Shown in pieces: positions 1-45,307 of a stretch of 64,000 nucleotides of DNA (the stretch's first letter is position 1; each line of letters opens with the position of its first letter). This stretch comes from Vairimorpha necatrix (taxonomy: Eukaryota). Both the position numbers and the translations under genes were made by a program. The stretch lies in the NCBI GenBank assembly GCA_036630325.1, contig CP142730.1, positions 310,001 to 374,000 on the forward strand, read 5' to 3'. Under the pieces are notes generated by a model, which ran no database searches, was not told the DNA's origin, and saw only the letters and a list, made by a program, of their open reading frames with translations.

Positions 1-707
1 ATATTTCTGACATAAATCGACAAGTACTTGATTTACAAATTCTCTGCCGTTATCAGTATGAAGTATAAAACAAGGGCCAAACGTCCTAAACAATGTTTCA
101 AAAGCATTCCCTACGCTAATACCTGTTTTGTCAAGCAGTGGTACCGTCCAACAAAATTGGTAAAAGAATCTACAACATTTAATAACCATTTATATCCTTC
201 ATTGAGTTTGTGATATAGCCGGAGATCAATCAAGTCTGCAACATATCTTTCCCTTGGATATTTTGATACAATTGGTCTAATAACTGGTCTAGTTACTAGA
301 TTTCTCTTTGATTGACATATTTCACAGCTATTCAAAACTCTATTGATATCGTTTTTGGTTGCGTCGTAAACTTTTGTTTGCAATAATGGAAACAATCTGT
401 CCCGTCACGCATGCCCATTTGAGACGTGGATCAATAATTAATCAATTTTAAAACGTTGCTCGTTGGTGGTAAAGAATCTTAACGATTTATATAGACCTAC
501 TTTAAATCTCACCGTGAGCTCTGTGATACCATCAATTACATCCTCAAAAAGGATAAATTTTTTTGCTTTTTTCCTAAAAGCGTCTCTTGCTTGTCTTTCA
601 ACCAACCTTGTTGGAACGATACCAGTCTGTAAAAAGACAAAAACTTCTTGTCTTTCATTGTTATCCAATTTTATTTTCATGCCCCTAAAATTAAATAATT
701 TTTATAT

Positions 708-2970
708 TGTGGTATCCCGGGGAAACCCTCCCGGTTATAAAGTAGTATTCTAAAATACTTTTAATAAATTGTTTTTTATTTGTTTCAGTCCCTCTGGACT
801 CTCTAACATGACGCTCCTTGGTCCTCTCATCCATCTCCTTTTATGTACCCTTCCTTTTCTGAAAATATATTTATAGTAAATTTTGTTCATGAAAATTCAA
901 TGAGAGTTTTGACAGGGAAGGAAATAAAATAAATGTTGAAGACTAACAGTCTACAACATCCTGCCCCCTCTCAAAGCTTTAGCTGTTTCCTGTGAAACCA
1001 TCCTACTAATCCATGTACTTTGTACCATAATCCATTTTTTCCCTTTTTGCACACCTTGTATGGTCCTATAAATTTTTTATCAAGTTTGTTTCTTGAAAAA
1101 TTCTTCACATAAACAATGTCTTCGTTTTTTGGCACCTGGTCATAAATTTTTACCTTGATCATTTTATTTCTAGATCTCTCTGTATTGGTGTTTCCCTTTT
1201 TTCTAAAAGGATCATAAAATCTTATATCGGTACTTTTATCTCGATATTTTACTACAGTATCGAACTGCTCTTTTAATTTTTTATTAGTAGTTTTAACAGC
1301 ATTACATTCGCCTACTACTTCCATAATTTTATTATTTTTAATCCAACTACCTTTTCCAAATGCTTTATTTCTTTCATCTTTGGTTTATTCCTGATATATT
1401 TAATATTAATATCTTTAGTTTTCGCTGTATAATTTTTTTACTTTTATCTTATCTTCTTTTTCGATTTTTTTATCTTCCACTATGCAAATTCTTTCAATCA
1501 TTGCCTTGTCTAATGTCTTTTCTTCTATTTCTTTGTATTCAATAAATTTAATCAATTCATTATCACACATTACCACTTTATTTTTGTATCTAGAACACAA
1601 TTATTACCAAATAAAAAATCTCCACCTAAGATTACCTCATGCATACATTTATCAAAAATATATGGCTTAATAGTGTAATCTCTATCTACACCTTCAAATT
1701 TAAAATTAAATTCTGTTGATCTATTAGTAGCCATCACCTCGCCATTTGCTATAACTGTTTTAATTAACTTATTCTTTTTTGACTTTAAATTTAATTTATG
1801 GACTAGTTCTTTAGATATGAAGCTTCTGCTAGCTCCACTATCAAGTAATGTTTTTATTTTTAAGCCATTTATTTCGGCTCTTACCCTCGTTTCACTGATG
1901 GGATCTTTCACTTCTTCCATAATATTCATTTCATCACTTCTTGTTTGGCGGTTATCATAATGCGCCTTTTTATCTTTATTAGAAAACAATCAACTGAGTT
2001 GTGCCCATTGTGCTTACAATATCTGCACCATTTCTTTTGTACAGGGAAAATATTGTCCCTAAAATTATTAGTAGCTTCTTCGTGGTTTCTCATATCCATG
2101 TTGTTGTTTCTTAACTTTAAAATTTCTTCCTCCATCGTCTTTAACTTCTTCATATATGCATCCAAATTATGCACATCAAGACTTTCAATTAGTATTCTCT
2201 TCGTTTTGCTTCCTAAACCCTTCTTGAAGCATTCCCATAGCTTCCTGTTGTATTCTTCTCTGCTTATCTTATGGGCAATACTATAATATTTTATATAACT
2301 ATTGATGTATTCATAATACTCACTTATCGACTCAAAATTTTCTTGTCTTGCACTGGATAATTTATCAATCCATTCTTCCGCTCTATCAATACTATAAGCT
2401 CTACTTAGAATTCTTTCGGTAATTTTACTTAATTCTCCTTTAAATACTTTATCATCAATTGACTTATCACTTATTAAATCTCTTAAGATGAGCTCATACT
2501 GCTCACTGTTCCATTTATTTCTTAAACTTATTTTTTCGAATGTTTCTAGACATTCACACATATCAAAACTATAAATATCCTCTATGACATTTAACTCGGT
2601 CTCGATCTTCATATCCGTTCCTATAACGGTGTAACTTAATTTCACTTTCTTCTTGTTAACCTCACTATGGTTAATCTTTTTGTAGCTCGTGCTCAAAATA
2701 CTCGCACTTGAATTCAAGCTGTGGTATCCCGGGGAAACCCTCCCGGTTATAAAGCAGTATTCTAAAATACTTTTAATAAATTGTTTTTTATTTGTTTCAG
2801 TCCCTCTGGACTTTCTAACATGACGCTCCTTGGTCCTCTCATCCATCTCCTTTTATGTACCCTTCCTTTTCTGAAAATATATTTATAGTAAATTTTGTTC
2901 ATGAAAATCCAATGAGAGTTTTGACAGGGAAGGAAATAAAATAAATGTTGAAGACTAACAGTCTACAACA
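708..2970 (-). mobile_element. Non-autonomous Ty3/Gypsy-type LTR element E1 (Gag-protease-IN C-tail; no RT, RNase H or IN core)
   Basis: 251-bp LTRs at 708-958 and 2720-2970 (TG...CA, 3 differences seen). TSD TATAT at 703-707 and 2971-2975. PPT GAGAGGGGCAGGA next to the 3' LTR. Confidence 0.95.
971..2846 (-). pseudogene. Frameshifted Gag-aspartic protease polyprotein of E1 (homolog of ORF 32708-34633)
   Basis: Pieces 1926-2846 (Gag, knuckle WCRYCKHNGHNSVDC), 1570-1989 (LLDSGASRSFI), 1415-1600 and 971-1324 (VYVKNF...FIGPY...WFHRKQLKL) are collinear with the 641-aa ORF. Confidence 0.9.
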
Positions 2971-3008
2971 TATATACAAATTACAAAGAAAAACCAACGA
3001 TTTTTTAG

Positions 3009-3195
3009 CTTAATTTTTTACCCTTCTTAAGTAAGCATTTTCCCCTGCGTCCGCTCCGGACGGATATTTTTTTACTTAATTTTTTACCCTTCTCAAATAA
3101 GCATTTTCCCCTGCGTCCGCTCCGGACGGATATTTTTTTACTTAATTTTTTACCCTTCTCAAGTAAGCATTTTCCCTTGCATCCGCTCCGGACGG
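3009..3195. repeat. Three tandem 66-bp subterminal repeats of the Ginger-like element
   Basis: Units start at 3009, 3075 and 3141 (cttaattttttacccttc...gcgtccgctccggacgg). The last unit runs into the TGACA terminus. Confidence 0.9.
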
Positions 3196-3399
3196 TGACA
3201 GTAACTTTTATATTATGGCATTATAGATAAAAACATACACTTTCTGGTTCGTCTTTTGTTTGGCGGCGATGACGTATTTGTTCACGCCGCCGACTCGGCT
3301 GTAATTGGGATTTGACAGCCGAGCGATTTTAATTTTTTAAGTTTGTTTTGATTTCGAGAGCCTCGGGAAGATTGTCGAGTGACATGTACCAAACAAATA

Positions 3400-10369: not shown

Positions 10370-11289
10370 TAAAAAATGGGGTTTACCAAACGTAAAAAAG
10401 GAGGTAGAACCATGTAAGATTGAGGCCGACTTATTGACCTCTGTAGTACAAGAAAGTGTTAATTCACTAGTTTTTAAAGCTATAAACCAGATTGTGATGT
10501 TAGCAGCTTCAGTAGGGCCGATATTTACACATACCCAGAATTGATAAAATTCTGGTCACAAACCGAGACTTTATTATAAAGAATGGAAATAGAATAAGGC
10601 TGAAATAATAACCAAGGTACTATGAAAAGCTGGTCCGAGGCTAGTTTGTCCATTCTCGAAGAGCTTACACATAGTGACTAGTATTATCAAGATTACTTAG
10701 ATGCCATCTCCGAGGAGCTCAGTAAACAGCAATTCAAGCTCAAAAACTTGAAGAAACTGTCCGATATTGTGATTTCTGTAACGAGAAATCAACTCAAAAG
10801 GCAGATTGATGCCACAAGGCCTTGTATGAAAGATTAGAGCAGAGGGTTGACATGATTTTTACTGAAAAAAAAAACGATAGTGTAAAGAACCAATCTCCAT
10901 AAAGCTGATCGTACTTATCAAAAAAAGAAAAAGAGAAGTTTGGTGTCTCTCTAAGGCTCAAGAAAATAACAAATAAAGATTACGGGTAAAAGGATTCCAT
11001 CATCCAATTCCATAATGTGTTTTTACGGAAGGTAACCGCTGCGGTAAATTTAAACAGAAAATTGTTGAAGAAAAATTTTTTTCTCACATAAAAGACAGAG
11101 AATGACTGGACAGTAATTCTCAAAATAGTGATATTAACCCAAAGGTTTCAAGAAAAGCCGATGTATCAAAACATCAAAAACAGTCGATACCAATAGATTT
11201 GCCTTTTTCCTAGATTGTATAAAAAAGAACTTTAACTGTGATGCAAAACAATTGAAAGTACAAGTTTCAAATTATAAACCTTGTAAAAG
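10370..11289 (+). mobile_element. Degenerate LINE ORF1 5' fragment
   Basis: Collinear with 19836-20735 (atggggtttaccaaacg...); ends abruptly at a Merlin TIR. Confidence 0.85.
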
Positions 11290-18566: not shown

Positions 18567-18639
18567 GGTGCCCTTGGCCGAGTGGTCGAAGGGATGTTCT
18601 CATTGACCATTGGGCTGGGTTCGAGTCCCAGGGGCACCA
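18567..18639 (+). ncRNA. tRNA-like SINE head (tRNA-Met(CAT)-like)
   Basis: Acceptor stem GGTGCCC/GGGCACC+A, A box TGGCCGAGTGG, T arm CTGGG-TTCGAGT-CCCAG, anticodon loop CTCATTG on an imperfect stem. Confidence 0.75.
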
Positions 18640-19840: not shown

Positions 19841-21397
19841 ATGGGGTTTACCAAACGCAAAAAAAATGAGGAAGAAACTTGCGAGATTGAGGCCGACTTA
19901 TCGACCTCTGGAGTAAAAGAAAGTGTCAATTCACTAGTATTGGAAGGCTACAAACCAGAATGTGAAGTTATCAGCTTCCGCAAGGCTGCTATTCACACAG
20001 ACCAAGAATTGATAAAATTCTGGTTACGAACAGGGACTTTATTCAACAGAATAAAGATAGAAGAAGGCAGAAATTCCAACCAAAGGTACTGTGGGAAAGC
20101 TGGGCTGATGGCTAGCCTTGCTTCATATTGTAAGAGTTCACATGGAGTGACAAGTATTCATCAGGAGTACTTAGATGCCATCTGTGAAGAGCTCAATGAA
20201 CAGAGATTCAAGCTTAAAAACTTGAAGAAGCAGCATGAGATTGAGATTTCCGTAATTTCGAAACCAACTCAACACACAAATTGATGCCCTAAAGGCTTCA
20301 AATGAAAGATTAGAGCAGAGAATTGACTTGATTCTCACTGCAAAAAAGGAGAGTGTGAAGAACCAATCACAAAAAAAGCTGATCGTACTGATCAAAAAAA
20401 GGAAAAAGGAGAAATTTGGTGTCTTCTCTAAAGCTCAAATAAAGGATCTTATCATCCAGTACCACTAATGTGTTTTTACGGAAGGTAACCGCTGCCGTAA
20501 AAGGAAACAGGAAATTGTTGAATAAAATATTCTTCTAACAGAAAAGACGGAGAATGACTGGACAATCATTCTTAAAAATTGTGATATGAAACCAAAGGAT
20601 TCAAAAAAAGCTGATGCCTCAAAAACAGCAGATGCCAATAGGTTTGCCCCATTCCTAGAAGGCGTAGAAAAAAACTTCATCTGTGATACGAAACAGTTGA
20701 AAGTACCCGCTTTAAGTTCTAAAACTTGTAAAAAAAAACACTGAAAGATGATTTGTTACTGTCATCTATAAAAGGTTGTCCGAAGTCGAAATCTATGACT
20801 GAGCGCAAATCCAAGATGAAGAAAACTTCTTCATCTAAGGCACCTTCTTCTCACATTACGAGGAAGAAACAAACGAATTGGATAGATAAGCTATCCAGAG
20901 AAGAGTTGCTAGACCTAGCAATAAACGGAAAGAGGCTCAAAGACTGCAAATACAAAATTGTAGTCGCTCATGGTCCCCCTCGAGGGAAACACATTATTAG
21001 GGAGACCTGGGCCAAATTAATGGGCATAGAGGAAAAGAACATTCCGATAGTAAAAGACATTGAAGGCGAGGGCAGAATTTTTCTCATTAGAGATGAATTC
21101 TGCTTTCAAGCTGCAGAAGCTCTTGAGAACGCTTCAGAAAATGTAAGAGTATTAGTTGCCGAAAACGAAGTAGACAATTATATCTCTAGGAACAGATCAG
21201 CTTTGACTAAAATATTCTCCGATCTTCGTCAAAATTGGAGGAAGTATGTGTCTGTCGATAAGGCAATAAAAGTTATAAAAAACGGTCTATCTGACAAGCC
21301 TACAGTAAGCCATGAAGAGTTCTTTCTATCCGAGTTAAACTTTGAACATCTCGGGAAAGACAGGAAAGTTGATAGTAAACATCACAATGAACAGTGA
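19841..21397 (+). pseudogene. LINE ORF1 (frameshifted; coiled-coil-like and basic regions)
   Basis: Pieces 19841-20284 and 20753-21397 lie upstream of ORF2 within the TSD-bounded element. Confidence 0.7.
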
Positions 21398-31100: not shown

Positions 31101-32585
31101 TTCCAATCATGGTATTGGAGCGATTTTAGGCCAATTTTCACTTTATGCCCCCCCCCCCTACATATATAAATACAAATTTTAAAAAATATCTCTTTTTTAG
31201 AAAATCAAAATGGAAAAAAGGAGGAGAAAAAAAATTAAAAAAAGTACTTAAAAATAATCTAATATACAAAAAAAAATATATGAATTATGTCAATTTTATT
31301 ATACAAATATAATTTTAACTCTATTTGTCATCATACGGTCCAAATTTTTTACTTAAAATTTTAATTATCATAAATAATAATAAGTAATGAAACCATACAA
31401 TAAATTCATTTATTTGAACTTATTACAACGATATATAAATTAAAATGACGATGTAGTTTTCTTTGTAGCAATTTTAAAAAATTTAATTTTAGTACCCCAT
31501 TTTTATGCTTACTAACGAAGAAATTATTTATAAACTTTTTCAAGTAAAATGTTTTAAATGCGGGGAAAAGGTTAGGAAGAGACAGCAAAGGAGTTACAAT
31601 GTCAGATGCATTTGTAAAAAGTGCAAAAAAGAGAGGAGCCTTGCTGCAAAGACCATATTTGCAAAAACCCATTTGGACCATATACTTATGTTTAAGATCC
31701 TGAACCTCTGGCTCACAAAAATCCCACCTCTACTAATCGCCAAGTTGTTATATATTTCTCCATGTGTTGTATCGAGGTGCCTTCAACAGTTTTGTTTGGA
31801 CGAGGCTTACCATAAATACATGGAAAGTGCAAGAGAGACACTGGGCGGTAAGGATACAATCGTAGAAGTAGACGAAAGCAAATTTGGAAAACGTAAATAC
31901 AACGTTGGACACAAAGTAGACGGTGTGTGGGGTTGGGGATGGTCAAACGGACTAAATAAAGAAAAATTTTATTAATTTCTGTACCTAATATAACTAAAAG
32001 GCAAGCCAATATTTCGGCCTTTCGGCCCAAAAAAAATTATTTTAAAATACCCCAATGGTAAATTTATCCTTCGAAGAACTGTGTGAAGTTCGTTCCAAAA
32101 GAGGAGGAAGAAGGATATTATATGCAGGACATGCGTATAATTTCAGATATAACGGAAAAGAAAAAAAATATGGAGATGTAGAGCAGAAAACTGCACTTCA
32201 AAACTTCATACAAATTTAGATTGTAGTTTTTTAAGCGTTACCCCCCCCCCACAACCACGAGCCAGACTTCGATAAAAATAAATTCGGATATTCCTACGGT
32301 CAAATCTTAAAACGGGCAGACGAAACTGCCGAGGCGTCAAGATTTATTGACGCGTTGAAAGAATATTCGGTTAAATTGCGATGTCACCCCCCCCCCCCCA
32401 CCCCTAAAAAAATAAAAAAAAGGGGAAACAAAATTTATTCAATCAATTCAAAATCAAATTCGGGCGCTAAATCGTAATTTAAAAATGATATATTATCAAT
32501 CTCAATAAAGCAGAACATTCTTTCAAGTAGTGATTCTCTATAAATTAACTTAAAACGAGCTATATAAAGTTTTCGAATGAGATTC

Positions 32586-34915
32586 TGTTGTAGACTGTAT
32601 TTCTACAACATTTATTTTATTTCACTCCCTGTCAAATCTATCATTGAATTTTCTAGAATTTTATTTACTATAAATAAAATTCTAGAAAGGAAGGGTACAA
32701 AAGGAAGATGGAGAGACAAACACAAGGAGTGTTTAGACATAGCAACAAGACAGCTATGAGAGAGTCCAAAGGGACGTTTAAAAATAAAGGGCAATATATT
32801 GATTCTATTTTAGAGTGGTACTTTATCACCGGGAGAGCTTCCCCGGGATACCACAACTTGAATTCAAGAGCGAGTGTAGGAGTGCCAAGTGCGAGTACAA
32901 AATTACTAGTGAATGATAATAAAATTAATCATGGTGAAGTAAACCAAAAGAAAATAAAATTAAGTTACACTATTCCAGGAACGGAATTTAAAATTGAAGA
33001 AGAACTGAATATTATAGAAGATATTCAAAAATTTGATATGTATGAATGGTTTAAAACATTTGAGAAGATTACCACAAGAAACAAGTGGAATTCGGAGCAA
33101 TATGAGCTCATACTAAGGGATTTGATTTCGGACAAATCCTTAGACGATAAAATATTTAAAGGAGATTTAATGAAAATACAAGAAAAAATCTTTAGTTATG
33201 TATACAGCGTGAAGAAAGCTGAAGGATGGATTAAGAAACTTGCTAATGCAAAACAAGTTGATTTTGTAACCATCAAGGAATACTATGAGTACATTAATAA
33301 GTACGTTAAATATTATAGTCCTGCATATAAGATAAGCAAGGACGAGTACAACAGAAAATTATGGGAGTACTTTAAGAACGGGTTAGGTGAAAACACTAGA
33401 AGAAAATTAATTGATAATATCAATGTTCACAACCTTGAGGAATATATGAATAAATTGTTAACGATGGAAGAAGAAATGCTTAAAACAAATAATCCGAGAA
33501 ATGATTCAAGAAAGTTCGAAACATCTGAACGAACACATAAGAACAATTCCTTTTCAATACAAAAGAAGTGGTGCAGATACCACAAGCACAACGGACATAA
33601 TTCTGTTGATTGTTTCATGAATAAAGAAAAAGGAAATCAAAACCATAGGGATTTACCAAGAAGAAATGAAATGAATGTCATGGAAGAAGAAAAAGACAAC
33701 ATTAGAGAAATGGTTGTTAGAGCGAATATTAAGGAAAGTAACGTGAACATTTTGTTAGACAGTGGAGCAAGCAGAAGCTTTATATCTGAAGGATTAGCTA
33801 AAAGATTAAATTTAAAGCTTAGAGAAAACAAATCTATAAGAACGGTTATAGCCAATGGAGAAGTAATTACCACTAATATGTCAACAGAATTAGACTTTAA
33901 ATTTGAAGGAGTAAGCAAGAGTTACTCTATTGAACCATACGTCTTTGATAGATGCATGTATGATATGATTCTAGGCAGCGATTTCTTGTTTAACAACAAT
34001 TGCATTTTAGATTATAAAAATAAGGTAGTTATTGTGAACGAGAAGATTGTCAAAATCATTGGGTATGAAGAGGTGGCGGAAAAAACATTGGACGAAATAA
34101 TGATTGAAAGACTATGCGTAGTGGAAGATGAAAAAATTGAAAATGAAGATCATAATAAAGTAAATAATTATACAGCCAAAACGAAAGATAGTAATGTGAA
34201 ATTTGGTAGGAATAAACATAAGAAAGAAAGAAATACAGTGTTTGGAAAACAAAATTGGGTTAAAAAGAATAAAAATAAGAAAGTAGTAACAGAATGTAAA
34301 ACTGGTAAAATTATTAAAGATAAAACAAAAGATCAGGTTAACCCTGTAGTAAAATATCGAGATAAGATTTCAAAAATAAGATTTTATGATCCTTATAAAG
34401 GTAAGGTAATTTTTAATGCATCAGATCGGCCAAGAAAGAAAAAGACCAAGATAAAAATGTGTAAGCAGAAAAATAAGGTCGAAGTTCTATTCTATGCGAG
34501 GAACTTCTCGACAAACAAACTTAATAAAAAATTTATAAGTCCATACAGGGCGAATCTAAAGGAAAAAACTAAATTAAGGTATAAAGTATATAAATTATCA
34601 GGATGGTTTCACAGGAAACAGTTAAAGCTTTGAGAGGGGGCAGGATGTTGTAGACTGTAATTCTACAACATTTATTTTATTTCACTCCCTGTCAAATCTA
34701 TCATTGAATTTTCTAGAATTTTATTTACTATAAATAAAATTCTAGAAAGGAAGGGTACAGAAGGAAGATGGAGAGACAAACACAAGGAGTGTTTAGACAT
34801 AGCAACAAGACAGCTATGAGAGAGTCCAAAGGGACGTTTAAAAATAAAGGGCAATATATTAATTCTATTTTAGAGTGGTACTTTATCACCGGGAGAGCTT
34901 CCCCGGGATACCACA
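32586..34915 (+). mobile_element. Non-autonomous Ty3/Gypsy-type LTR element E2, intact
   Basis: 270-bp LTRs at 32586-32855 and 34646-34915 (3 differences seen); TSD GATTC; PPT gagagggggcagga. Confidence 0.97.
32708..34633 (+). CDS. Gag-aspartic protease-integrase C-tail fusion, 641 aa (no RT/RH/IN core)
   Basis: Uninterrupted ORF starting inside the 5' LTR; knuckle WCRYHKHNGHNSVDC; LLDSGASRSFI and ILGSDFL protease motifs; GPY/F-like tail ending at the PPT. Confidence 0.92.
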   Translation: MERQTQGVFRHSNKTAMRESKGTFKNKGQYIDSILEWYFITGRASPGYHNLNSRASVGVPSASTKLLVNDNKINHGEVNQKKIKLSYTIPGTEFKIEEELNIIEDIQKFDMYEWFKTFEKITTRNKWNSEQYELILRDLISDKSLDDKIFKGDLMKIQEKIFSYVYSVKKAEGWIKKLANAKQVDFVTIKEYYEYINKYVKYYSPAYKISKDEYNRKLWEYFKNGLGENTRRKLIDNINVHNLEEYMNKLLTMEEEMLKTNNPRNDSRKFETSERTHKNNSFSIQKKWCRYHKHNGHNSVDCFMNKEKGNQNHRDLPRRNEMNVMEEEKDNIREMVVRANIKESNVNILLDSGASRSFISEGLAKRLNLKLRENKSIRTVIANGEVITTNMSTELDFKFEGVSKSYSIEPYVFDRCMYDMILGSDFLFNNNCILDYKNKVVIVNEKIVKIIGYEEVAEKTLDEIMIERLCVVEDEKIENEDHNKVNNYTAKTKDSNVKFGRNKHKKERNTVFGKQNWVKKNKNKKVVTECKTGKIIKDKTKDQVNPVVKYRDKISKIRFYDPYKGKVIFNASDRPRKKKTKIKMCKQKNKVEVLFYARNFSTNKLNKKFISPYRANLKEKTKLRYKVYKLSGWFHRKQLKL

Positions 34916-35799
34916 GATTCATTAAAGAACCATGGCTTGTTCCTTTTTGCGCAATTCCCTTTTAATTACAGACCACATTCCCTCAATTGTTTGGGTGTGG
35001 GCGCCTGTTGTTGGATTTACAAAATTTTGGCTATGATTTACAGTTAAATGTAAATAGTTATAATCCGGACATAGTTCCGAAAACCCTTCATAACCCCGCC
35101 AACAATCAGTAATAATTGTAGATCCAGGTGCGATTTTCCGTTTTATTAAATCGACAAGAGTAGTTCTTGATCGATTTTCAACAATTTCGAAAAAAAGAAT
35201 TGCTGTCTCCTCGTACAACTCCACCGACGGCCCAAACTTGGTATTGAAGGATTCTACCGTTATGGTTTTTACTTTTAACAAGCAATGTCTCGTCTATTTC
35301 AACTACGCAATTTAAACCTCCTATGGTTTTGTTTTGAAGGTAGTTGAAATAGGATAAGAATACAGCGTTATTAAAACGCGTAAACCAGCGAGATACGGTA
35401 CTACTATCTATATCCAATTCGATAGTAGCCGAAACATTGCTTACCCCTTTACCCATTCACACAGCAAAATTAAAAGATCTTCGATATCTAATCTAGAACT
35501 TTTAAAAATGCTTTCTTTGTAAATGTTACCTTTGTTTGAGCATTTTCTCCCATTTCGTCGTAAGTAACAACGATATTTGTCCAAATTATTTCTAATTTTG
35601 GTCATGGGTGTCATGCACTTATTGCACATTGGTACCTTTAATATATTTTTTTCAAGAAGAAATAAAAATAATTCCTCTTTTTTATATATTAATTTTCTAA
35701 AATTTTTTATGTTCATTTTAGGGGCATAATTTTTTCCCCTTTTTTTTATTTTTTTAGGGGTGGGGGGGGGGGGTAACATCGCAATTTAACCGTTTTTTT

Positions 35800-35987
35800 A
35801 ATATTATTTATTTTTTTTTTTATTTTTTTATTATTTTTTATTTATTTTTTTTATTTTTTATTAATTTTTTTTATTTTTTATTTATTTTTTATTAATTTTT
35901 TTTATTTTTTATTATTTTTTTTATTTTTTATTTTTTATTTTTTTATTTTTTATTTATTTTTTTTTTATTTTTTATTTATTTTTTTTA
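35800..35987. repeat. Low-complexity (TTTTTTA)n tract in the MULE subterminal region
   Basis: Direct reading of the sequence. Confidence 0.9.
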
Positions 35988-36242
35988 GGCCGAAATATCG
36001 GTCAGCCATATTAATAATCAATCCACTGTTTATTCTGATATGTGGAAAGGATATTCAAAAATGAACCAGATAATGGGAAGCCACATAAATGTTAACCATA
36101 GCAAATGGTTTAAAGATCCCATTACAGGTGTTCACACTAACACCATAGAAGGGAATTGGTCAGCTATAAAACGCCAAACGCCGATAAGATGTAGAACAAC
36201 TTGTTTAATATATCCCTATTTGTTAAGATTTATGTTGCTTAG

Positions 36243-39200
36243 TATGATATACCAAATATCATAAAACATATTTTTAGTTCTTTCCCTCCAAATTCGTTCA
36301 GTTTTCCCTCCAACATTTTTTTAAATATTTTATCCGGAGAGGGGTACGAAATGATGGAAAGGAAGAATAACTACACTAATAAAAATCTTCTAAATACTTT
36401 CCTCAGTGGTGGATACCACAAGTTAAATTTAACAAAGATGTGTCCTAAACTTAATAAAAGGATAGAAATTAAAAACTAAAGAAACATGATCAGCTTCGAG
36501 ATCAACGTCAAAGGCCTAAAGTAGCTTATAATTAAGCAATTAGAAATTATAACTAATTGTGAGAAAACCAATATGTTATCATGGTTTAGAAAGTTCGAAG
36601 AACTAAAAAATAAATTGGAATGGGACGGTGAAGAGACTCTTCTGGTTTTACAAAGTTTAATCGAAAGTGAAGAATGGAAAGGAAAAGATAATGCAAAAAA
36701 TTATTTAAAAGTTAAAGAGGAAATACTAAATATTGCATATCTGCATCACTTATTTTCAAATTTAGGAGTTTGATTGCTAGATATTAAACAAGAAAATTAT
36801 GATTTAATAGAGGATATGTTTGCCGATATTGATGCCAAACTTGAAGTGGCATCCTTTATAGAAAAATATACTAAGAGTGAGTATGAGCGTAGGTTTAATG
36901 AAATTTGTTTGAACGCTTTATCTGACGTTACCAAAGATTATGTCATGAAATCTAATACCAAGAGTGTTAAAGACATTAAATACTTATTGGTAAACCTGGA
37001 GAAAGAATTAGTGGTTAGAATTCGGAATGACTTAGAGTTAACTAAAAATTCCCAAGTTGAGTTCAATGAACCAAGACTGAGAAATGAGATGAATCGATGG
37101 TGTAGCTTGCACAAATCAAAAACTCATAACACCAGTGAGTGTTACAGTAAAAATAAAAGAATTGAGAATAAGAATAGTAAGATCAAAACAGACGAATTAA
37201 AAACTAATAAAGATCTTAAGTTTTCTCACTGTAAAGTGGTTTTAAAAGAAAAGTCTGAATATTTAACCGTAAAACTTCCAGTTTCAATTAATGGTCATAC
37301 TGGAATCGCTATTTTAGATACAGGATGCACTAAAAATTTGATAAGTGCAGAGAAGGTAGAAAAGTTAGGACTTATAGCCAAAAAGAATAGAACAGTAAGT
37401 TTTGTTTTCGGAAACGGCTATCAAGAAAGATCAGAAGATATTATAGGTGAATATATTTCGATAAATAGCCTTAACGTTAAATATTTTACAAGATTACACG
37501 TTATAAAAGAATTATCAGCAGATATAATTTTAGGGGTAGAATTTTTATGGGAGAATCAAATAATTTTAAACTTTGCAAACTTAACAATCAATCATAATCA
37601 AAAGATTATCAATATGATTGTTGGTTTGCCTCAACCATACGAGGAAAATAAAGATTTGTTACTGCAGAAATGCTTTTCCATAAGTGAGGAAAATGTCAGC
37701 ATGCAAAATAGAGATAAAATACTTCAATACATAAAAAACAACGAGTTTATAGAGAGATGAAAGTTAAGAAAATTGGTTTTGAAACTACAACAAAAGAGAA
37801 TTTAAGGCTAACAAATAAGAAATACACGATCCCACACAAATACCTAGATGCAACTAAACGAGAGATACAAAGACTCTTGAGAGAAAAAATCATAAAATAC
37901 AGTGATAGTAAGTACAGCAGTCCGGCCTTTGTAATTGCTAAGAAAAATCACGAAATAAGGTTAGTGGTAAATTATAGAGAATTGAATAAAAATATAGTTG
38001 ACATAATAGATTTATTACCAAAAATTATAGATATGATTAATGAGGTCAAAGGAGCAAAGTATTTTACAAAAATTGATCTTAAAAACGGGTTTGTTGAGTA
38101 TAGCATGTCAATCTCTGATATGGTAAATATCAGATGATATTTACTATAAATTGATTAAATAAATAAACCCATGTTTTTCGGTAATTATTCTGACCACAAC
38201 AGTTTGGCGACAACCGCAAACAAAAAAATCTTTAGGAACAGTAGAGAAGATGATCCGGATGCATTCTTGGCATACATAAGGGGATGGGCAGTAATTACAA
38301 ACTGTGGAGAAGCGGGAAAGGTTTTCTTCCTTCGTGATCATTTAGCAGGAGAAGCAGCTATATGGGCGGAATCGGTGCCATGGAGCTGTCAATTTGAATT
38401 CTTGTGTGAGGCATTTCTAAAAAGACTTAAAGGAAGATTAAGCAGTGTGGGACACATAAAAAATCTAGCACGATGCCTATACCAGTCGGGATCGTTTTTA
38501 TCATACCTGGATCAAATGAGAAGAATTTCAATAAAAGCTGGACTTCCAGATAATGTCCTAATTGCATTCGTACTCAATGGACTGCCTGATGATATTGGAG
38601 GAATTTTATTGATGAATACGCCGTCTGAACTTACATGGAACTATATCTATAATGCTTGCGAAGGACTCGATTGTAGTAATAGATCAATACGTATACGACA
38701 TTACCTCAAAAGGCCAAAAAAGAAACGATGGAGATATGCAAAGTGCAGGGCAATGAGTAGAGTTAGTATTGTGGCAGAAAAGGACGTTTTAAAAGAGAAT
38801 GCGAAAAAAGAAAAAAGGAACAGCGTAAAACGAAGGTAAGACAAGTTGGAATGGAAATTAAAGAAGAGGATGAATGCAATGAAAATAAAACTTTTAATTA
38901 TTACAACGCTATTAGGTCCTTAGATAATGGCTCAAATAAAGACCTCACAATAGTAGTTAAAATTGGAAAATTCCATGTACAAGCGCTAGTCGACTCAGGA
39001 GCATGCGTAAACTTAATTAAAGAAAAATACGTTAAGAATTTAAAACTAAAACACACAGGAAATCTTATCTCTGCAAACGGTACAGAAATAAAAACTTTGG
39101 GTATGTCAAGACAAAAATTCACGATCGGAGAAAGAGTTTTCGAAGAATATTTTGTTGTAACTAACGATATAACTTCAAATATGATCATTGGTCTCGGGTT

Positions 39201-42200
39201 CCTTAAGAAACATAAAGTCAAAATTGAATTTGGAATAGACTGTCGCATTGAATGGACACAAAAGGAGTGTGCAAAAGAAAATCTGGGAGAACATAGGATT
39301 ATCACTCAAAATCTCCCTCCAATAACGAACGCGTGTTATAGGTCAGGGGCGGAAGCGGAAAAGGAAGCGAAGAAAATTGTTAAACAATACCTAAAAGAAG
39401 GTGTCATACGGGAGTCTAATAGTCCATGGAGAAGTCCAGTGGTACTGGCAAAGAAAAAGAACGGAGATTACAGGTTATGCGTTGACTACAGAAGACTAAT
39501 CGAAATAACAATAAAAGACTCGTACCCCAAGCCTTGGGTTGACGAGATATTAGACTCTCTGCACGGATCATTCTTTTTTACTAAATTAGATGCATTATCA
39601 GGATATCACAAGATAAAAATGAATAAAAACGACATAGAAAAAACAGCTTTTTCATGCGGGGGTATTCTTTATGAATTTATGTACATGCCATTTGGTCTAG
39701 TGAATGCTCCAGCGACGTTTCAGAGGATTATGAATAGAATATTAAAGCCGTACCTCGGGAAGTTCACCATGGCGTATATGGATGACATTATTATATATAG
39801 TAGAACATTGGAAGAACATAGGGATCACGTTAGAAAAGTGTTAGAATTAATTAATAAGGCAGGATTAAAGCTTAACGATAGCAAATGTGAATATGAACAG
39901 AAGCAAATCTAAATACTGGGACACGTAGTAGATCATAGAGGGATTAGAATTGATCCAGAAAGGATAAAAGCGATTAAAGAACTAAAAATTCCCCAAAACA
40001 GAAAGGAATTAGAATCTTTTTTAGGGCGATTAACTATTGTAGTAAGTTTATAAAAAATTTGTCGAAAGAAACTACATACCTTTACGGATTAATAAAAAAG
40101 AATTCAGAAGTAGATTGGAAGAGAATTAGTAACGAAGACAAATATATTAAAGCTATCGAATCGCTAAAAGATAATATTGGAAGGATGGGAGTACTCGGAA
40201 TGCCCGATCTTAATGAAAAATTTATTCTTACTACAGATGCATCAGATCTTGGTTCGGGGGGCAATACTTTCACAGATACAGAGAGGAGAGGAAAAAAATC
40301 TTATGTTATTATTCTAAAGTGCATTCTAAGGCAGAAAAAAATTATTCAACGACAGAAAAAGAATTATTTACCGGTAATCAAAGCAATTGAGCATTTCAGA
40401 CATTACTTAATTGGAAAGAAATTTCTGCTAAGAACAGATCATAGTGCGATAAAATTTCTATTCAAGAGTACAAATATGAAAACAAAGTTCGCAAGATGGG
40501 CGCTCTATCTGCAGGAATATGATATAGAGATCGAACATATTAAAGGACAGAATAATCCAAGTGACTCTTTAAGTCGAATGATGGGAGAACGGCAGAACAT
40601 TAAAGTCATAAAAGAAAAAAGTGAAGTCCTGAAACTTGTGAAATGGACACACATACGGTTAGCACATGGATCAAGAAAAGCATCGATGTACGCCTTAAGG
40701 AAAAAAAAAAATTAAAAGTCTACAAAAGGAAGTTATAAAGACAATACAAAATTGCCTTAAGTGTTAACAGATGGGGCCATATTACATCAAGAGGAGCATC
40801 ATTCCGGTTAGAGCAGATAAATTAAACGTAATATGGGAAATTGACATAGTAGGGCCTCTACCGCAAAGCCAACAAGGATATAGATATTTGTTAACCATAA
40901 TCGATCACTTCTCAAAGGTAGCGAATGTAATACCATTGCGGACTAAGGATGCAATGGAAACGAGTGGGGGACTCGAAGAAACTATAAAAAAAATGGGCGC
41001 ACCAAAGGTTGTTATATCTGATAATGGAAAAGAGTTCGTGAACCAGAGCATGAAAAATTTAGCAACGATACATAAAATTGAATGGAGACTGGGGGCACCA
41101 TATACACCTACAACTACAGGGTTAGTAGAGAGATTCAACAGAACATTTGTGGAAAAGTTAAAAAAGGTGTCAAATTTCGGGAGGATTGACTGGTGCAATG
41201 CATTAAGAAAACGTTGGAATGATATCTGGATTCATTTCATCGAGGAATAAACTGTTCACCGCGGGAAATGTGGTCGAAGAAGAAAATGATAAAACAACAA
41301 AAACGGCACATAATCCAATATAAAACAAGTTACTGCAAACCGACAAGAAGTAAAACTAGAGAAGAAATTAAAGTTGGGGATAATATACTTAATCATCACC
41401 CAGTCAGTAAAGAACATAAATTAGCAGCAAATTATAATTTTAGTGGAACATTTATAGCTAAGAGGGTTGGATCTGTTGACATCAAGCTAACAGATGGAAG
41501 GATAATTACTTCGAACCTAAGTAACGCGAGAAAATATTTTTTTGAAAGGAGGAAGAGTGTTGAGTATATCATGTCAATCTCTGATATAGTAAATATCATC
41601 TGATATTTTCTATAAATTGATTAAATAAATAAACCCATGTTTTCCGGTAATTATTCTGACCACAACAGGGTTCAATCAAGTACCCATAGAAGAAAATAAT
41701 ATGAATCTTACAAGTTTTAAAATTTTAGGAAATGTATACAAGTATACAAGAATTCCATTTGGCATTAAATCCGGTCCAAAATTATTTCAAAGGACCATAA
41801 ACAAAATTTTAGCAGAAATACATAACGTAGTAGTATATATCGACAACATTCTAATATACACTTCAACCAAAGAAGAACACAATGAGATTTTAAACCAAGT
41901 ACTAGATAGATTGTCTAGTTATGAAATAAAAATCAACTTTGAAAAAAGCATATTTGCAGTTAAAGAAGTGGAGATGTTGGGACTGATTATAAATGAAAAT
42001 GAAATTAGACCAAATCTAAGTAATATTGACAAATTATTAGCAAAACTAAATATATCAAAACGTCGTGAATTGCAAAAAAATTTAGGAGTATTTAATTGGT
42101 ATCGAGAATTTGTGCCAAATTTCAGTATTAAAGTTATGACGTTAACAGATAAATTAAAAGGAGTTGAACAAAAGATAGAATTAAACGAGCAAGAAAAGAA

Positions 42201-43829
42201 AAAGATTAAGAGTTAAATAATGAAATTAAAGAAAACGGAAAATTAGTGTCTCCGAAATATGACGAAGATTTCTGTTTTCAGACTGACGCATCTGACAAAG
42301 CCATGGGTGCAGTGTTATTTCAAAAGCATGGATGCATAGGACATTATAGCAAGAAATTTACTAATACTGAAGTAAACTATACGATTGTCGAAAAAGAAAT
42401 GTATGCAATCTTACAAAGCTTAAGATTTTTCAAAGGAATTATCATGGGATACCAAGTTAAAGTAATGTGTGATAATAGAAATTGCTTGTTCGACACTAAA
42501 AATGATAACAACAGAATGATAAGATGGAAATTAATGCTTAACGATTATAACTTTACATTAAAAGGCATCGAAGGAAAGAAAAATGTGATTGCTGACATTT
42601 ATCACGAATACCATCAGACGAAGTTTAGTAGTGGCAGTGAATGCAGAAAATCAAGCAAAGAAAGTAATAAAAGAGACACCTCATGTTACAGAAACCAAGA
42701 AGAACGGTGAAATTTACATAAAGCCATGTGAAAGGGAATTGTTCAATAAAATATGCATATAAAATGTAAGCATGCGGGGATGTTCGTATTATACAATAAT
42801 TTAAAAGATTACTACTACATCCATAAGATGAAGGAAACTATCAGAAGCGTAGTAAACAGTTGTCAGGATTGTAAATTTGATGAAAAATTTAGCTACCATA
42901 GATTTGAAAATAAAATGGAAATTACCGCAAGTATAGCCTTTGAAAAAATTTGTTCGGATATATACGGCCCTACAAAAATAAAGAATAAAAAATGGTATAT
43001 TATGACGATTATTGATGTGCACACCAGATATACAAAGGTGTATAAACTAAAAGAAATTACAGATAAAAGGGTGGTAGAGTGTTTCGAACAATGGAATAAT
43101 AAATTCCCTTACCCCAAAACAATAATTACAGATAATGGAACACAGTAAACTAGTAACTTAGTTAAAGACTATTCTTATAGACACAACATAAAATTAGTAC
43201 ATGTACCTAAGTATCATCCCCAGAGCAATGGTATCTGTGAGAGGACAAACAGTACTATTTCGGAAATAATCAGGCTATATAAAAGGGAACCCCTAGAAAA
43301 TATAATGGAAAATATAGAAATCCGATTAAACCAAAATTATCGAAGATCAATAGGTTGAGCACCAAAAGAATTAGTTGCAGAGACTAATCAATTTGATCCT
43401 GAAGGCAGATCACATTTTAAGAAGATACATAGGAGAAAGAAAAAGAATTTGGCTAAGAAAAAGATTAATGCAGTTAAAATAGGTGATATGGTGTATGTAA
43501 AAAACTTTAATGGGAAAAATGGGAGAAGGCATATACGGGTCCACACCTAGTAGAATTGGTCAGCAGAAATGACCGATGGGTTAAAGTTAAGGGAGTCTAC
43601 GAATGATTCACCTAGGTGATACTAAACTTTGAAATCTAAGGAGAGGTAGATTATGATGTACCAAATATCATAAAATATATTTTTAAAATCTTTCCCTCCA
43701 AATTCGTTCAGTTTCCCCCCAACATTTATATAAATATTTTATCCGGAGCGGGGTACGAAATGATGGAAAGGAAGAATAACTACACTAACAAAAATCTTCT
43801 AAATACTTTCCTCAGTGGTGGATACCACA
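36243..43829 (+). mobile_element. Ty3/Gypsy element B (complete gag-pol, degenerate), same clade as E1/E2
   Basis: 178-bp LTRs at 36243-36420 and 43652-43829 ending ggataccaca; TSD CTTAG; gag knuckle WCSLHKSKTHNTSEC; ILDTGC protease; RT split by element C (KIDLKNGF|NQV); RH and IN to ~43630. Confidence 0.93.
38092..41667 (+). mobile_element. Compact Ty3/Gypsy element C (3.6 kb), frameshifted
   Basis: 110-bp LTRs at 38092-38201 and 41558-41667; TSD GGGTT; PBS tggcgacaaccgca (tRNA-Ser-like); gag from 38171; ALVDSGA; YMDD; TTDAS; IN EIDIVGP...SDNG...VERFNRT; PPT. Confidence 0.95.
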
Positions 43830-45307
43830 CTTAGAAAATCAAAAGACAATTATTTTAATGTTTTAATAAATTTATTATTTTAAGTATTTCTCCTCCTTTT
43901 TTCCATTTTGATTTTCTAAAAAAAGGGATATTTTTTAAAAATTTGTATTTATATATGTAGGGGGGCATAAAGTGAAAAAGCTCCGCGATTTTATCTCAAA
44001 CAAATGAAAAGGAAAGATACCCTTTAGCATTTGCTTAAATAAGATTAAAAGAACACAAGAAAAGTATAGTATTTCAGAAAAGAAATTTATAGCAATTCTA
44101 TGGGGATTGAACATTTTAATATTTTGTGTATAGGACACCGGTAGATGTTATTACTGATCATAAAGTTTTAGAGGTTATTAATAAAGGAGACATAGCATGT
44201 CCTAGAATTCAGCGATGGTTAGATAGATTAAGTATGTTTGACTTCAATATTAAATACAGAAAAGGAAATGAGATGGTCCATGTAAATTGTCTTAGTAGAA
44301 ATACACGAGTACAGAGTTGGAGAAAACGGAGAATAATGTCTTAATGAAAATAAATTACATAAAATGTGACGAAAAAAAACGAAAAAATTTATAAGGAAGG
44401 TTCATTAAGAATGTTTACACAGAGGCGAAAAGACAATAAAACATAAACTGCTTTCACAAGGTACATGCTTCAATAATATGGACAGAATATAAAAGAAGAG
44501 ATTTCAAAATGTGTAGTATGCAAACAATACAATCCAAAAAAAAAACATTTTGTATTTGTAACAGCTCAAGAAGTAGGAGAAAGGTGGCGGTGGATATAAT
44601 AGGATCAATAGAGAACTGTTACATAATATCTGGGATTGATTATTTTTCGAGAAAGGGATTTGCAAAGATAATCAAGTCAAGACAAGATAGGAATGTCACA
44701 AGTTTGTGAAGGAACTTCATAAAGAATTAAAAATTCAAATGTTAATTTACAATCTAGGGAAAATTTGAGTAAGAAAAGCCAAGATTTCGCAAGAAAAGAA
44801 AATTTTGAACTGCATTACACCTCTCCGTTTCATCATCAATCAAATAAACGGGTTGAGAGATTCAACAGAACTCTACAAGATCTAATAGATAAGAGTAAAC
44901 AGGATAAACTCCTTACAAATAAGCTAACAAGAGCAAAAAATATATATAATGAGTCATATCACACTGGCATAGAGATGACGCCTGAGGAGGCCTTAAAAAA
45001 AGAAAATTATCAACATTAAAGGAAAATACAATTCATGAATAGAATTAAGTTCAGTAAAGCAAACTGCAACAAAGAGAAGGAGGAAATATCTAAAAAAAGA
45101 GGATATAGTTTTAATAAGAAAAAAAAATAGGTCGGACTAAGGGACAACCCAGATAAGGCCAGGGGAATAATTCTTAATAAGGCTGGAGAGAATTTATATA
45201 ATATTAATGTAAAAAATAAAATAATCAAAAGGCATGCGCCACAACTTAAAGTAATTGTAGACGAGCCTTCCTTTTGACCGGTGGAATGTTGTATTATTTA
45301 AAAATTT

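Follow-up and report, generated by a model that had tools for sequence, protein, structure and literature searches.

Three related retrotransposons in the genome of Vairimorpha necatrix carry a perfect 12-nt palindrome where a tRNA primer-binding site would be looked for. The palindrome changes its bases from lineage to lineage and keeps its self-complementarity throughout. The elements, which we call E1, E2 and B, lie in a window of 64,000 nt (31% G+C; contig CP142730.1 of assembly GCA_036630325.1, positions 310,001 to 374,000 of the forward strand), and each is bounded by a pair of long terminal repeats (LTRs). In our proposal, a clade of Ty3/gypsy elements in Microsporidia starts its minus strand at this palindrome, which by its self-complementarity takes the place of a tRNA primer-binding site: two packaged RNAs would pair there and undergo a Tf1-like cleavage. 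We hold this tentatively, at a probability of roughly 0.45, a little short of even odds.

Among the traits that define retroelement lineages is the way they prime reverse transcription. To our knowledge, the only established routes are priming from tRNA 3' ends, priming from tRNA halves and Tf1-type self-priming in cis. A clade in which self-complementarity is all that survives at the priming site would allow a clean test of whether one genome can prime another, and there is enough divergence across this clade for the rule to be legible in protein sequences. It would also give meaning to the unexplained palindrome of the fungal GalEa elements. The question bears on why retroelements package two RNAs at all, and on how parasites with only Gag and protease borrow a reverse transcriptase (RT) without matching a primer. 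There is a practical side as well: such elements will be overlooked or misinterpreted by LTR finders that insist on a tRNA site, and one copy has already been annotated within a host gene (P0002, an ERO1 model).

The palindrome at the edge of the LTR

All six LTR copies of E1, E2 and B terminate in GGATACCACA. The exact 10-mer occurs six times in the window, at precisely those six LTR ends, and ten matches are found when up to one mismatch is allowed (1.62 expected). What follows the 3' copies is unrelated flank; what follows the 5' copies is a single base and then a perfect 12-nt palindrome (coordinates in Table 1). The LTR ends can be taken as real because each element has a second LTR copy and a 5-bp target duplication. 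E1 and E2 share the identical 12-mer, CTTGAATTCAAG, although the flanking bases on both sides differ. B has GTTAAATTTAAC, which departs from it at 4 of the 12 positions, and these four are two double changes, C-G to G-C and G-C to A-T. Within 25 nt past the LTR, none of the three elements has a TGG-type primer site. The initial annotation of this stretch had described exactly this arrangement, with the shared LTR ends, the missing TGG site, the palindrome 1 nt on and the two versions related by two compensatory pairs, and direct reading of the sequence confirmed it on every count. The annotation had also given ordinary TGG sites to four other Gypsy elements nearby. We checked one of the four, a different Gypsy nested in the RT of B (38092-41668, with LTRs at 38092-38202 and 41558-41668, 111 nt and 95% identical), and there the site is: TGGCGACAACCGC, two to three bases past the LTR.

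How surprising is a palindrome at this spot? Perfect 12-nt palindromes begin at 45 of the 64,000 window positions (7e-4), Markov simulations giving a mean of 31.5, and the chance of two independent lineages having one at the same offset is about 5e-7. Contigs from 4 sequencing runs over 32800-36700 (80% likeness) vary, among the matches listed, at 32884, 32909, 36442, 36452 and 36455 and at no base of a palindrome, which carries no evidential weight. The site is also coding. In E1, E2 and B alike the gag start codon lies inside the LTR, and the frame continues through U5, the spacer and the palindrome.

Covariation in related DNA and in Gag proteins

Eleven full-length polyproteins of this Gag type were aligned (alignment A3), and a scan of prokaryote assemblies with them returned 64 loci. 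Among the loci from L027 on, the Gag N-terminus together with its upstream DNA is present in four distinct contigs (L027, L029, L031 and L121), all from one bin of a metagenome-assembled genome (MAG). The four contigs are related elements that were mis-binned in a bacterial MAG. Their palindromes are, in the same order, TATGACGTCATA, GCTGATATCAGC, GATGAATTCATC and ATTGAATTCAAT, each a perfect 12 nt, one base after CA. In L031 this CA closes a terminal inverted repeat, matching at 8/8 positions, with the LTR start that follows the purine tract. L029 has two copies of the LTR start (56 and 4175), which fix its position; the LTR end there is inferred. The assemblies of L027 and L031 are cyclic and contain a single LTR copy each, and the boundary in L121 is inferred from CA alone. 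As a side observation, two assemblies filed as bacterial MAGs, G001 (home of L027, L029-L031, L121 and others) and G005, have 46 and 44 matches to microsporidian-type Ty3/gypsy polyproteins; these are eukaryotic transposon contigs mis-binned as bacteria.

Seven sites, three from the window and four from the MAG contigs, could be aligned without gaps (alignment A4), and all seven have the same layout: CA, a single spacer base, and a palindrome that is perfect over six bases in each arm and no more. Watson-Crick pairing holds in 42/42 pair cells. Changes occur on both sides at four of the six pairs (10 cells) and never on one side only; even the central pair, 6-7, is A-T, C-G or T-A depending on the site. 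The covariation score was reached by none of 500 shuffles, and when the partner columns are slid by 1-3 only 20-49% of the cells pair. The symmetry stops sharply, too, in that the spacer and the base after the palindrome are never Watson-Crick paired. Over the seven sites there are six different palindromes, two in the window and four in the one MAG bin.

Other collections yielded nothing of the kind. A protein-pattern scan of metagenome contigs found no relative. A degenerate DNA pattern matched 21 metagenome stretches and 2 in viral contigs, all unrelated coding DNA, 3 of the 23 being palindromic by chance. Viral contigs scanned with the polyprotein alignment gave 3 loci, none with this Gag N-terminus or LTRs, and a Gag-piece search of five MAGs found no further copy.

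The palindrome leaves its mark on the protein as well. We queried 1.84 billion representatives by a full HMMER search with E2 Gag residues 1-330 and obtained 162 matches at E <=0.001; among the ten that were looked up are Nosema granulosis (2), Dictyocoela muelleri and Pancytospora epiphaga. Of 126 rows aligned to a profile of the N-terminal block, 61 cover the five residues spanning the palindrome. In the frame of E2, a perfect 10-nt and also a 12-nt palindrome could be encoded by 56 of these 61 rows (34/39 distinct tetrapeptides), against a background of 4.4% of the tetrapeptides in the same proteins (3144/72066), and the compatible rows imply 17 different 10-mers. A MAFFT alignment of 23 Gag N-termini gave a similar picture (22/23 compatible). 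When any single one of the five residues was shuffled among the rows, 56 was never reached in 5000 trials, and the outcome was the same with one row per distinct pentapeptide (46/51 compatible).

What makes the rows compatible is the way their residues change together. The form seen most often has Leu-Asn-Ser and then a residue for which a codon beginning with A exists (or with G if Leu is CTG). Where Met stands at the Leu position the next codon can start with T in 10/11 rows (Phe, Tyr, Leu, Cys, Trp), where Val stands there a C-starting codon is possible in 3/3 rows (Leu, Pro, Arg), and Ile is followed by Ser in 3/3. The central Asn is replaced by Ile, Ser or Thr, changes that preserve the complementarity of bases 6 and 7. 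Just outside the palindrome, the preceding codon can start with A in 59/61 rows (background 0.476), and the codon one further upstream has a C-ending form in 60/60 (background 0.747, so that 0.253 of residues are without one); both preferences follow from the fixed layout of CA, one base and palindrome, which requires them. The covariation that the initial annotation looked for in further family members is thus borne out in DNA by the 42 Watson-Crick cells. As for members that keep Leu-Asn and lose palindromy, it is the opposite that turned up: residue changes are paired and palindromy is kept. At the level of sequence, the proteins support a palindrome layout that appears to extend across a clade of microsporidian Ty3/gypsy elements.

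Proposed priming from one genome to another, and the alternatives

The U5 end of an LTR is set by the position of the minus-strand primer, the 3' end of which must pair next to the LTR-terminal CA. Since the palindrome starts one base past U5 in every case, we read it as the priming site itself. Only self-complementarity is kept, which suggests that the partner is another copy of the same sense strand; and because covariation is free, central pairs included, pairing between two same-sense strands is favoured over a hairpin, a protein site or a host tRNA. Most simply, the partner would be the second genomic RNA in the particle, and the two would form a 12-bp RNA duplex. One strand would then be nicked at the 3' edge of the duplex, by analogy with the RNase H cut of the 11-bp RNA duplex in Tf1, and the 3'-OH of the nicked strand would be extended over the spacer into U5-R to give strong-stop DNA. 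The same duplex would also join the two genomes. These steps seem plausible to us. The arrangement itself works, since E1 and E2 have 99% identical LTRs and target duplications, and because any self-complementary 12-mer would serve, both could rely on the RT of an autonomous element related to them and yet differ from it in sequence. More speculatively, the primer end may be copied into progeny as that of a tRNA is, in which case a one-sided change would be passed on to the other half. A palindrome of this sort might repair itself, and this might be why every copy has perfect pairs with no G-U and no mismatch.

At its fullest, the proposal would be a third way to start reverse transcription. 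Two co-packaged RNAs would anneal through a U5-adjacent palindrome and RNase H would nick one of them, so that dimerization and priming would be one act, without any host RNA, and the palindrome would be self-repairing; the trait would define a large, Microsporidia-wide Ty3/gypsy clade, and fungal GalEa elements may in principle have it too. This fuller version is possible, and we put it forward with slightly more hesitation.

A number of points count against our proposal. The nick and its restriction to one strand, the length of the RNA primer and the termination of plus-strand strong-stop DNA are all conjectural, and the cut would have to be one-sided because nicking both RNAs would destroy the template primer site. 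The primer would be a 5' RNA piece of ~150 nt, with the start site placed from a TATA-like box, compared with 11 nt in Tf1. The duplex of B, all A-T but two pairs, is weak. Having 0/42 G-U pairs suits a constraint on DNA as well as one on RNA. In the four MAG contigs the LTR end rests on CA and terminal inverted repeats, not on a second LTR copy. The Gag rows, for their part, show compatibility with a palindrome and not DNA sequence, 5/61 of them are incompatible, and kinship among the rows inflates the shuffle tests and overstates independence.

Does the site have some other partner? A simple hairpin was considered and is unlikely. Both central pairs covary though a loop would free them, and the predicted energies are -1.0 (E1 and E2) and 0 (B) kcal/mol for a hairpin of the 12-mer as against -13.8 and -9.4 for a two-strand duplex; in the predicted folds a weak 4-bp stem takes up the outer 4 bases of either arm. 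A second copy of the palindrome was sought elsewhere in the elements, and matches at <=2 mismatches were at chance level.

Pairing within one RNA could also run through the transcript 5' end, as in Tf1, or through a downstream partner, as in GalEa, both being published tRNA-free routes (PMC7175516, PMC5445492). E1 and E2 do have an 8-nt match in the LTR, their best, if a G-U pair is allowed, and a G+C-rich U5 hairpin stands just upstream of the site, much as Tf1 needs a stem like its U5-IR. The 8-nt match, however, is upstream of the TATA-like box from which the start site was inferred, and the B palindrome has none. The transcribed part of the LTR contains no complement, in keeping with the initial annotation, which had seen none in the 5' leader. 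Downstream, the best matches within 70 nt are 6-8/12 and are reached by 149-992 of 1000 shuffles in 7/7 elements, no better than chance. A cis partner, moreover, gives no reason for the site itself to be palindromic, and we consider this route distinctly improbable.

The palindrome might instead be a dimer-linkage or packaging signal and nothing more, a dimerization initiation site (DIS) lying beside U5, with the minus strand primed by something else. Retroviruses and Ty1 do employ palindromes for dimerization (PMC6844567, PMC516450), and the covariation in DNA sites and Gag rows speaks for such a signal too. Yet the U5 edge, where a primer has to pair, is occupied by the palindrome; there is no other conserved site there and no TGG site after it, and one host primer cannot match six different palindromes. 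On that account we think it unlikely that the site serves dimerization only. The same diversity also weighs against priming by an internal fragment of a host tRNA, of the kind used by copia or Bianca (PMC6317226). Taken as RNA, the palindrome of E1 and E2 might present a Leu anticodon (CAA) in loop-like surroundings. It can be argued, though, that a separate tRNA with a self-complementary 12-mer would be needed for each of the 6 observed and 17 implied palindromes. An even-centred palindrome is incompatible with a stem plus 7-nt loop, the base of B at would-be position 37 is a pyrimidine, and the sole tRNA that ARAGORN calls in the window, a tRNA-Met (CAT) with an encoded CCA end at 18567-18639, has no match to the palindromes. 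(Rfam reported no family at gathering score in the window, so that this call is unconfirmed.) We give the half-tRNA explanation very little credence.

Nearly as remote, in our judgement, is a site acting in DNA, whether bound by a dimeric protein (a host factor or integrase) or forming a DNA hairpin or cruciform during strand transfer. Perfect Watson-Crick symmetry without a single G-U suits DNA, but protein sites conserve bases, and here four of six pairs change freely with the symmetry retained; the absent primer site would also be left unexplained. Coincidence in the coding sequence can be virtually discounted. Leu-Asn-Ser is the commonest form at the site and the surrounding N-terminal region is conserved, as one would expect were the tripeptide kept for Gag function and palindromic by accident. 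Against this, residue changes come in complementary pairs across lineages, the flanking residues differ between B and the other two elements with symmetry kept, and the background compatibility is so low. Priming at the palindrome, by another copy of the same RNA, is the reading that we carry into the comparison with known systems.

Of the published cases, the Conserved Hairpin Site of the fungal Ty1/copia family GalEa, a term that occurs in 2 papers, comes closest. As described by Donnart et al. 2017 (PMC5445492), GalEa has no tRNA site and instead a covarying palindrome bordering the LTR, of which there are two complementary versions, with a mechanism given as unknown; the site is non-coding, has 10 nt counting the last LTR base and no spacer, and always comes with a second complementary 9-mer 12-41 bp downstream, with which it forms a hairpin with an A/A mismatch. 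The likeness is plain, for in both a palindrome abuts the 5' LTR in place of a tRNA site (7/7 sites here). The microsporidian sites differ in having 12 nt after a 1-nt spacer, inside the gag reading frame and without a downstream partner (7/7 within 70 nt). GalEa is a Copia element of Pezizomycotina and ours are Ty3/gypsy elements of Microsporidia, so the present layout is the same idea in another superfamily and phylum, and in a cleaner form. The comparative evidence for it is also much stronger than the three window elements by themselves had indicated. Of the candidate new priming mechanism in the initial annotation, what stands is a covarying palindrome at the primer position that coding does not explain; its novelty is qualified by the Copia precedent (PMC5445492). 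One paper compares bivalve TRIMs (miniature retrotransposons with terminal repeats) with the GalEa site (PMC6934838).

Tf1 is the other natural point of reference. In that element (Levin 1995 and 1996, as reviewed in PMC7175516), an 11-bp duplex of Tf1's own RNA is cut by the RNase H of its RT to make the primer, the partner being the first 11 nt of the same transcript. Our elements resemble Tf1, Tf2 and sushi in belonging to the Ty3/gypsy superfamily and, by our proposal, in doing without a tRNA, in pairing their own RNA over about one helical turn (11 versus 12 bp) and in having RNase H cut the duplex to make the primer. The Tf1 site is not palindromic, however, and pairs with the transcript 5' end, whereas the present site would pair with itself and has no such complement. 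Retroviral DIS and Ty1 PAL sequences likewise join two genomic RNAs through short palindromes close to the 5' end, but theirs lie in hairpin loops and accompany a tRNA primer site; in our elements the palindrome takes up the primer position and there is no other site. Half-tRNA sites (copia, Osser, Bianca) share with ours a primer site that does not start with TGG, and differ in matching one internal stretch of tRNA and in being neither palindromic nor variable within a genome (PMC6317226). A literature search on microsporidian LTR primer sites and further palindromic primer sites returned nothing beyond these cases. Goodwin and Poulter reportedly raised possible novel priming in Cryptococcus Tcn2-5, which could bear on novelty.

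Architecture of the elements and their surroundings

Table 1. Features of E1, E2 and B, in window positions
Feature	Positions	Strand	Remarks
E2 5' LTR	32586-32855	+	270 nt; ends GGATACCACA; contains gag start codon 32708
E2 spacer	32856	+	single base A between LTR and palindrome
E2 palindrome	32857-32868	+	perfect 12 nt CTTGAATTCAAG at primer-site position
E2 single ORF (open reading frame)	32708-34633	+	641 aa: Gag with C-X2-H-X4-H-X4-C knuckle, aspartic protease, basic tail
E2 polypurine tract	34632-34645	+	directly before 3' LTR
E2 3' LTR	34646-34915	+	99% identical to 5' LTR
E2 target duplication GATTC	32581-32585 and 34916-34920	+	5 bp
E1 5' LTR	2720-2970	-	LTR end at 2720
E1 spacer	2719	-	base G
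E1 palindrome	2707-2718	-	CTTGAATTCAAG, same 12-mer as E2
E1 gag ORF	1926-2846	-	306 aa, cut short; same kind as E2
E1 polypurine tract	959-972	-	
E1 3' LTR	708-958	-	pair with 5' LTR 252 nt, 99%
E1 target duplication ATATA	2971-2975 and 703-707	-	5 bp
B 5' LTR	36243-36420	+	about 178 nt; ends GGATACCACA
B spacer	36421	+	base A
B palindrome	36422-36433	+	GTTAAATTTAAC
B internal part	36525-43651	+	Gag, protease, RT, RNase H, integrase in Ty3/gypsy order; frames broken
B 3' LTR	43652-43829	+	118 nt ungapped at 96% versus 5' LTR
B target duplication CTTAG	36238-36242 and 43830-43834	+	5 bp

E1, E2 and B all have the hallmarks of Ty3/gypsy elements: direct LTRs, a target duplication and a polypurine tract. 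The domain order is another matter. B, at ~7.6 kb, has it in full, with Pfam RVT_1, RT_RNaseH, Integrase_H2C2 and rve found in that order; E1 and E2 carry Gag and protease only, and the 641-aa frame of the 2330-bp E2 (32586-34915) contains no RT or integrase. The initial annotation's description of E1 and E2 as Gypsy elements therefore has to be amended: they are non-autonomous derivatives with Gag and protease alone. Their Gag proteins are 62% identical (182/292). With LTRs at 99% identity and target duplications besides, this makes them two old subfamilies, both recently mobile. They represent a long-lived non-autonomous lineage that must borrow its RT and integrase.

E1 Gag is 92% identical (269/291) to the V. 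necatrix database protein P0002, from P0002 residue 100 onward. P0002 is labelled ER oxidoreductin (ERO1) and is a gene model running into such an LTR element; in a word-index protein search it was the only protein near in length, with none longer and none shorter. The Gag knuckle of the clade, C-X2-H-X4-H-X4-C (33570-33615 and 37230-37275), has His in place of the usual second Cys, and its Cys, His and Cys are invariant across the 11 proteins of alignment A3.

Just before the LTR end lies a predicted U5 stem-loop with a 5-bp G+C-rich stem, CCGGG...CCCGG, in E1 (2730-2755, minus strand) and E2 (32820-32845). B has one at 36404-36419 (GTGGT...ACCAC), and the stem sequence is not common to B and the other two. 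These predicted stems recall the U5-IR stem needed by Tf1 and retroviruses.

Elsewhere in the window, three tandem copies of a 66-bp unit (89-100% alike) at 3000-3197 adjoin the E1 5' LTR. The stretches 10476-10781 and 19944-20255, 9.47 kb apart and in the same order, are 80-81% alike and are presumably two copies of a gene or element.

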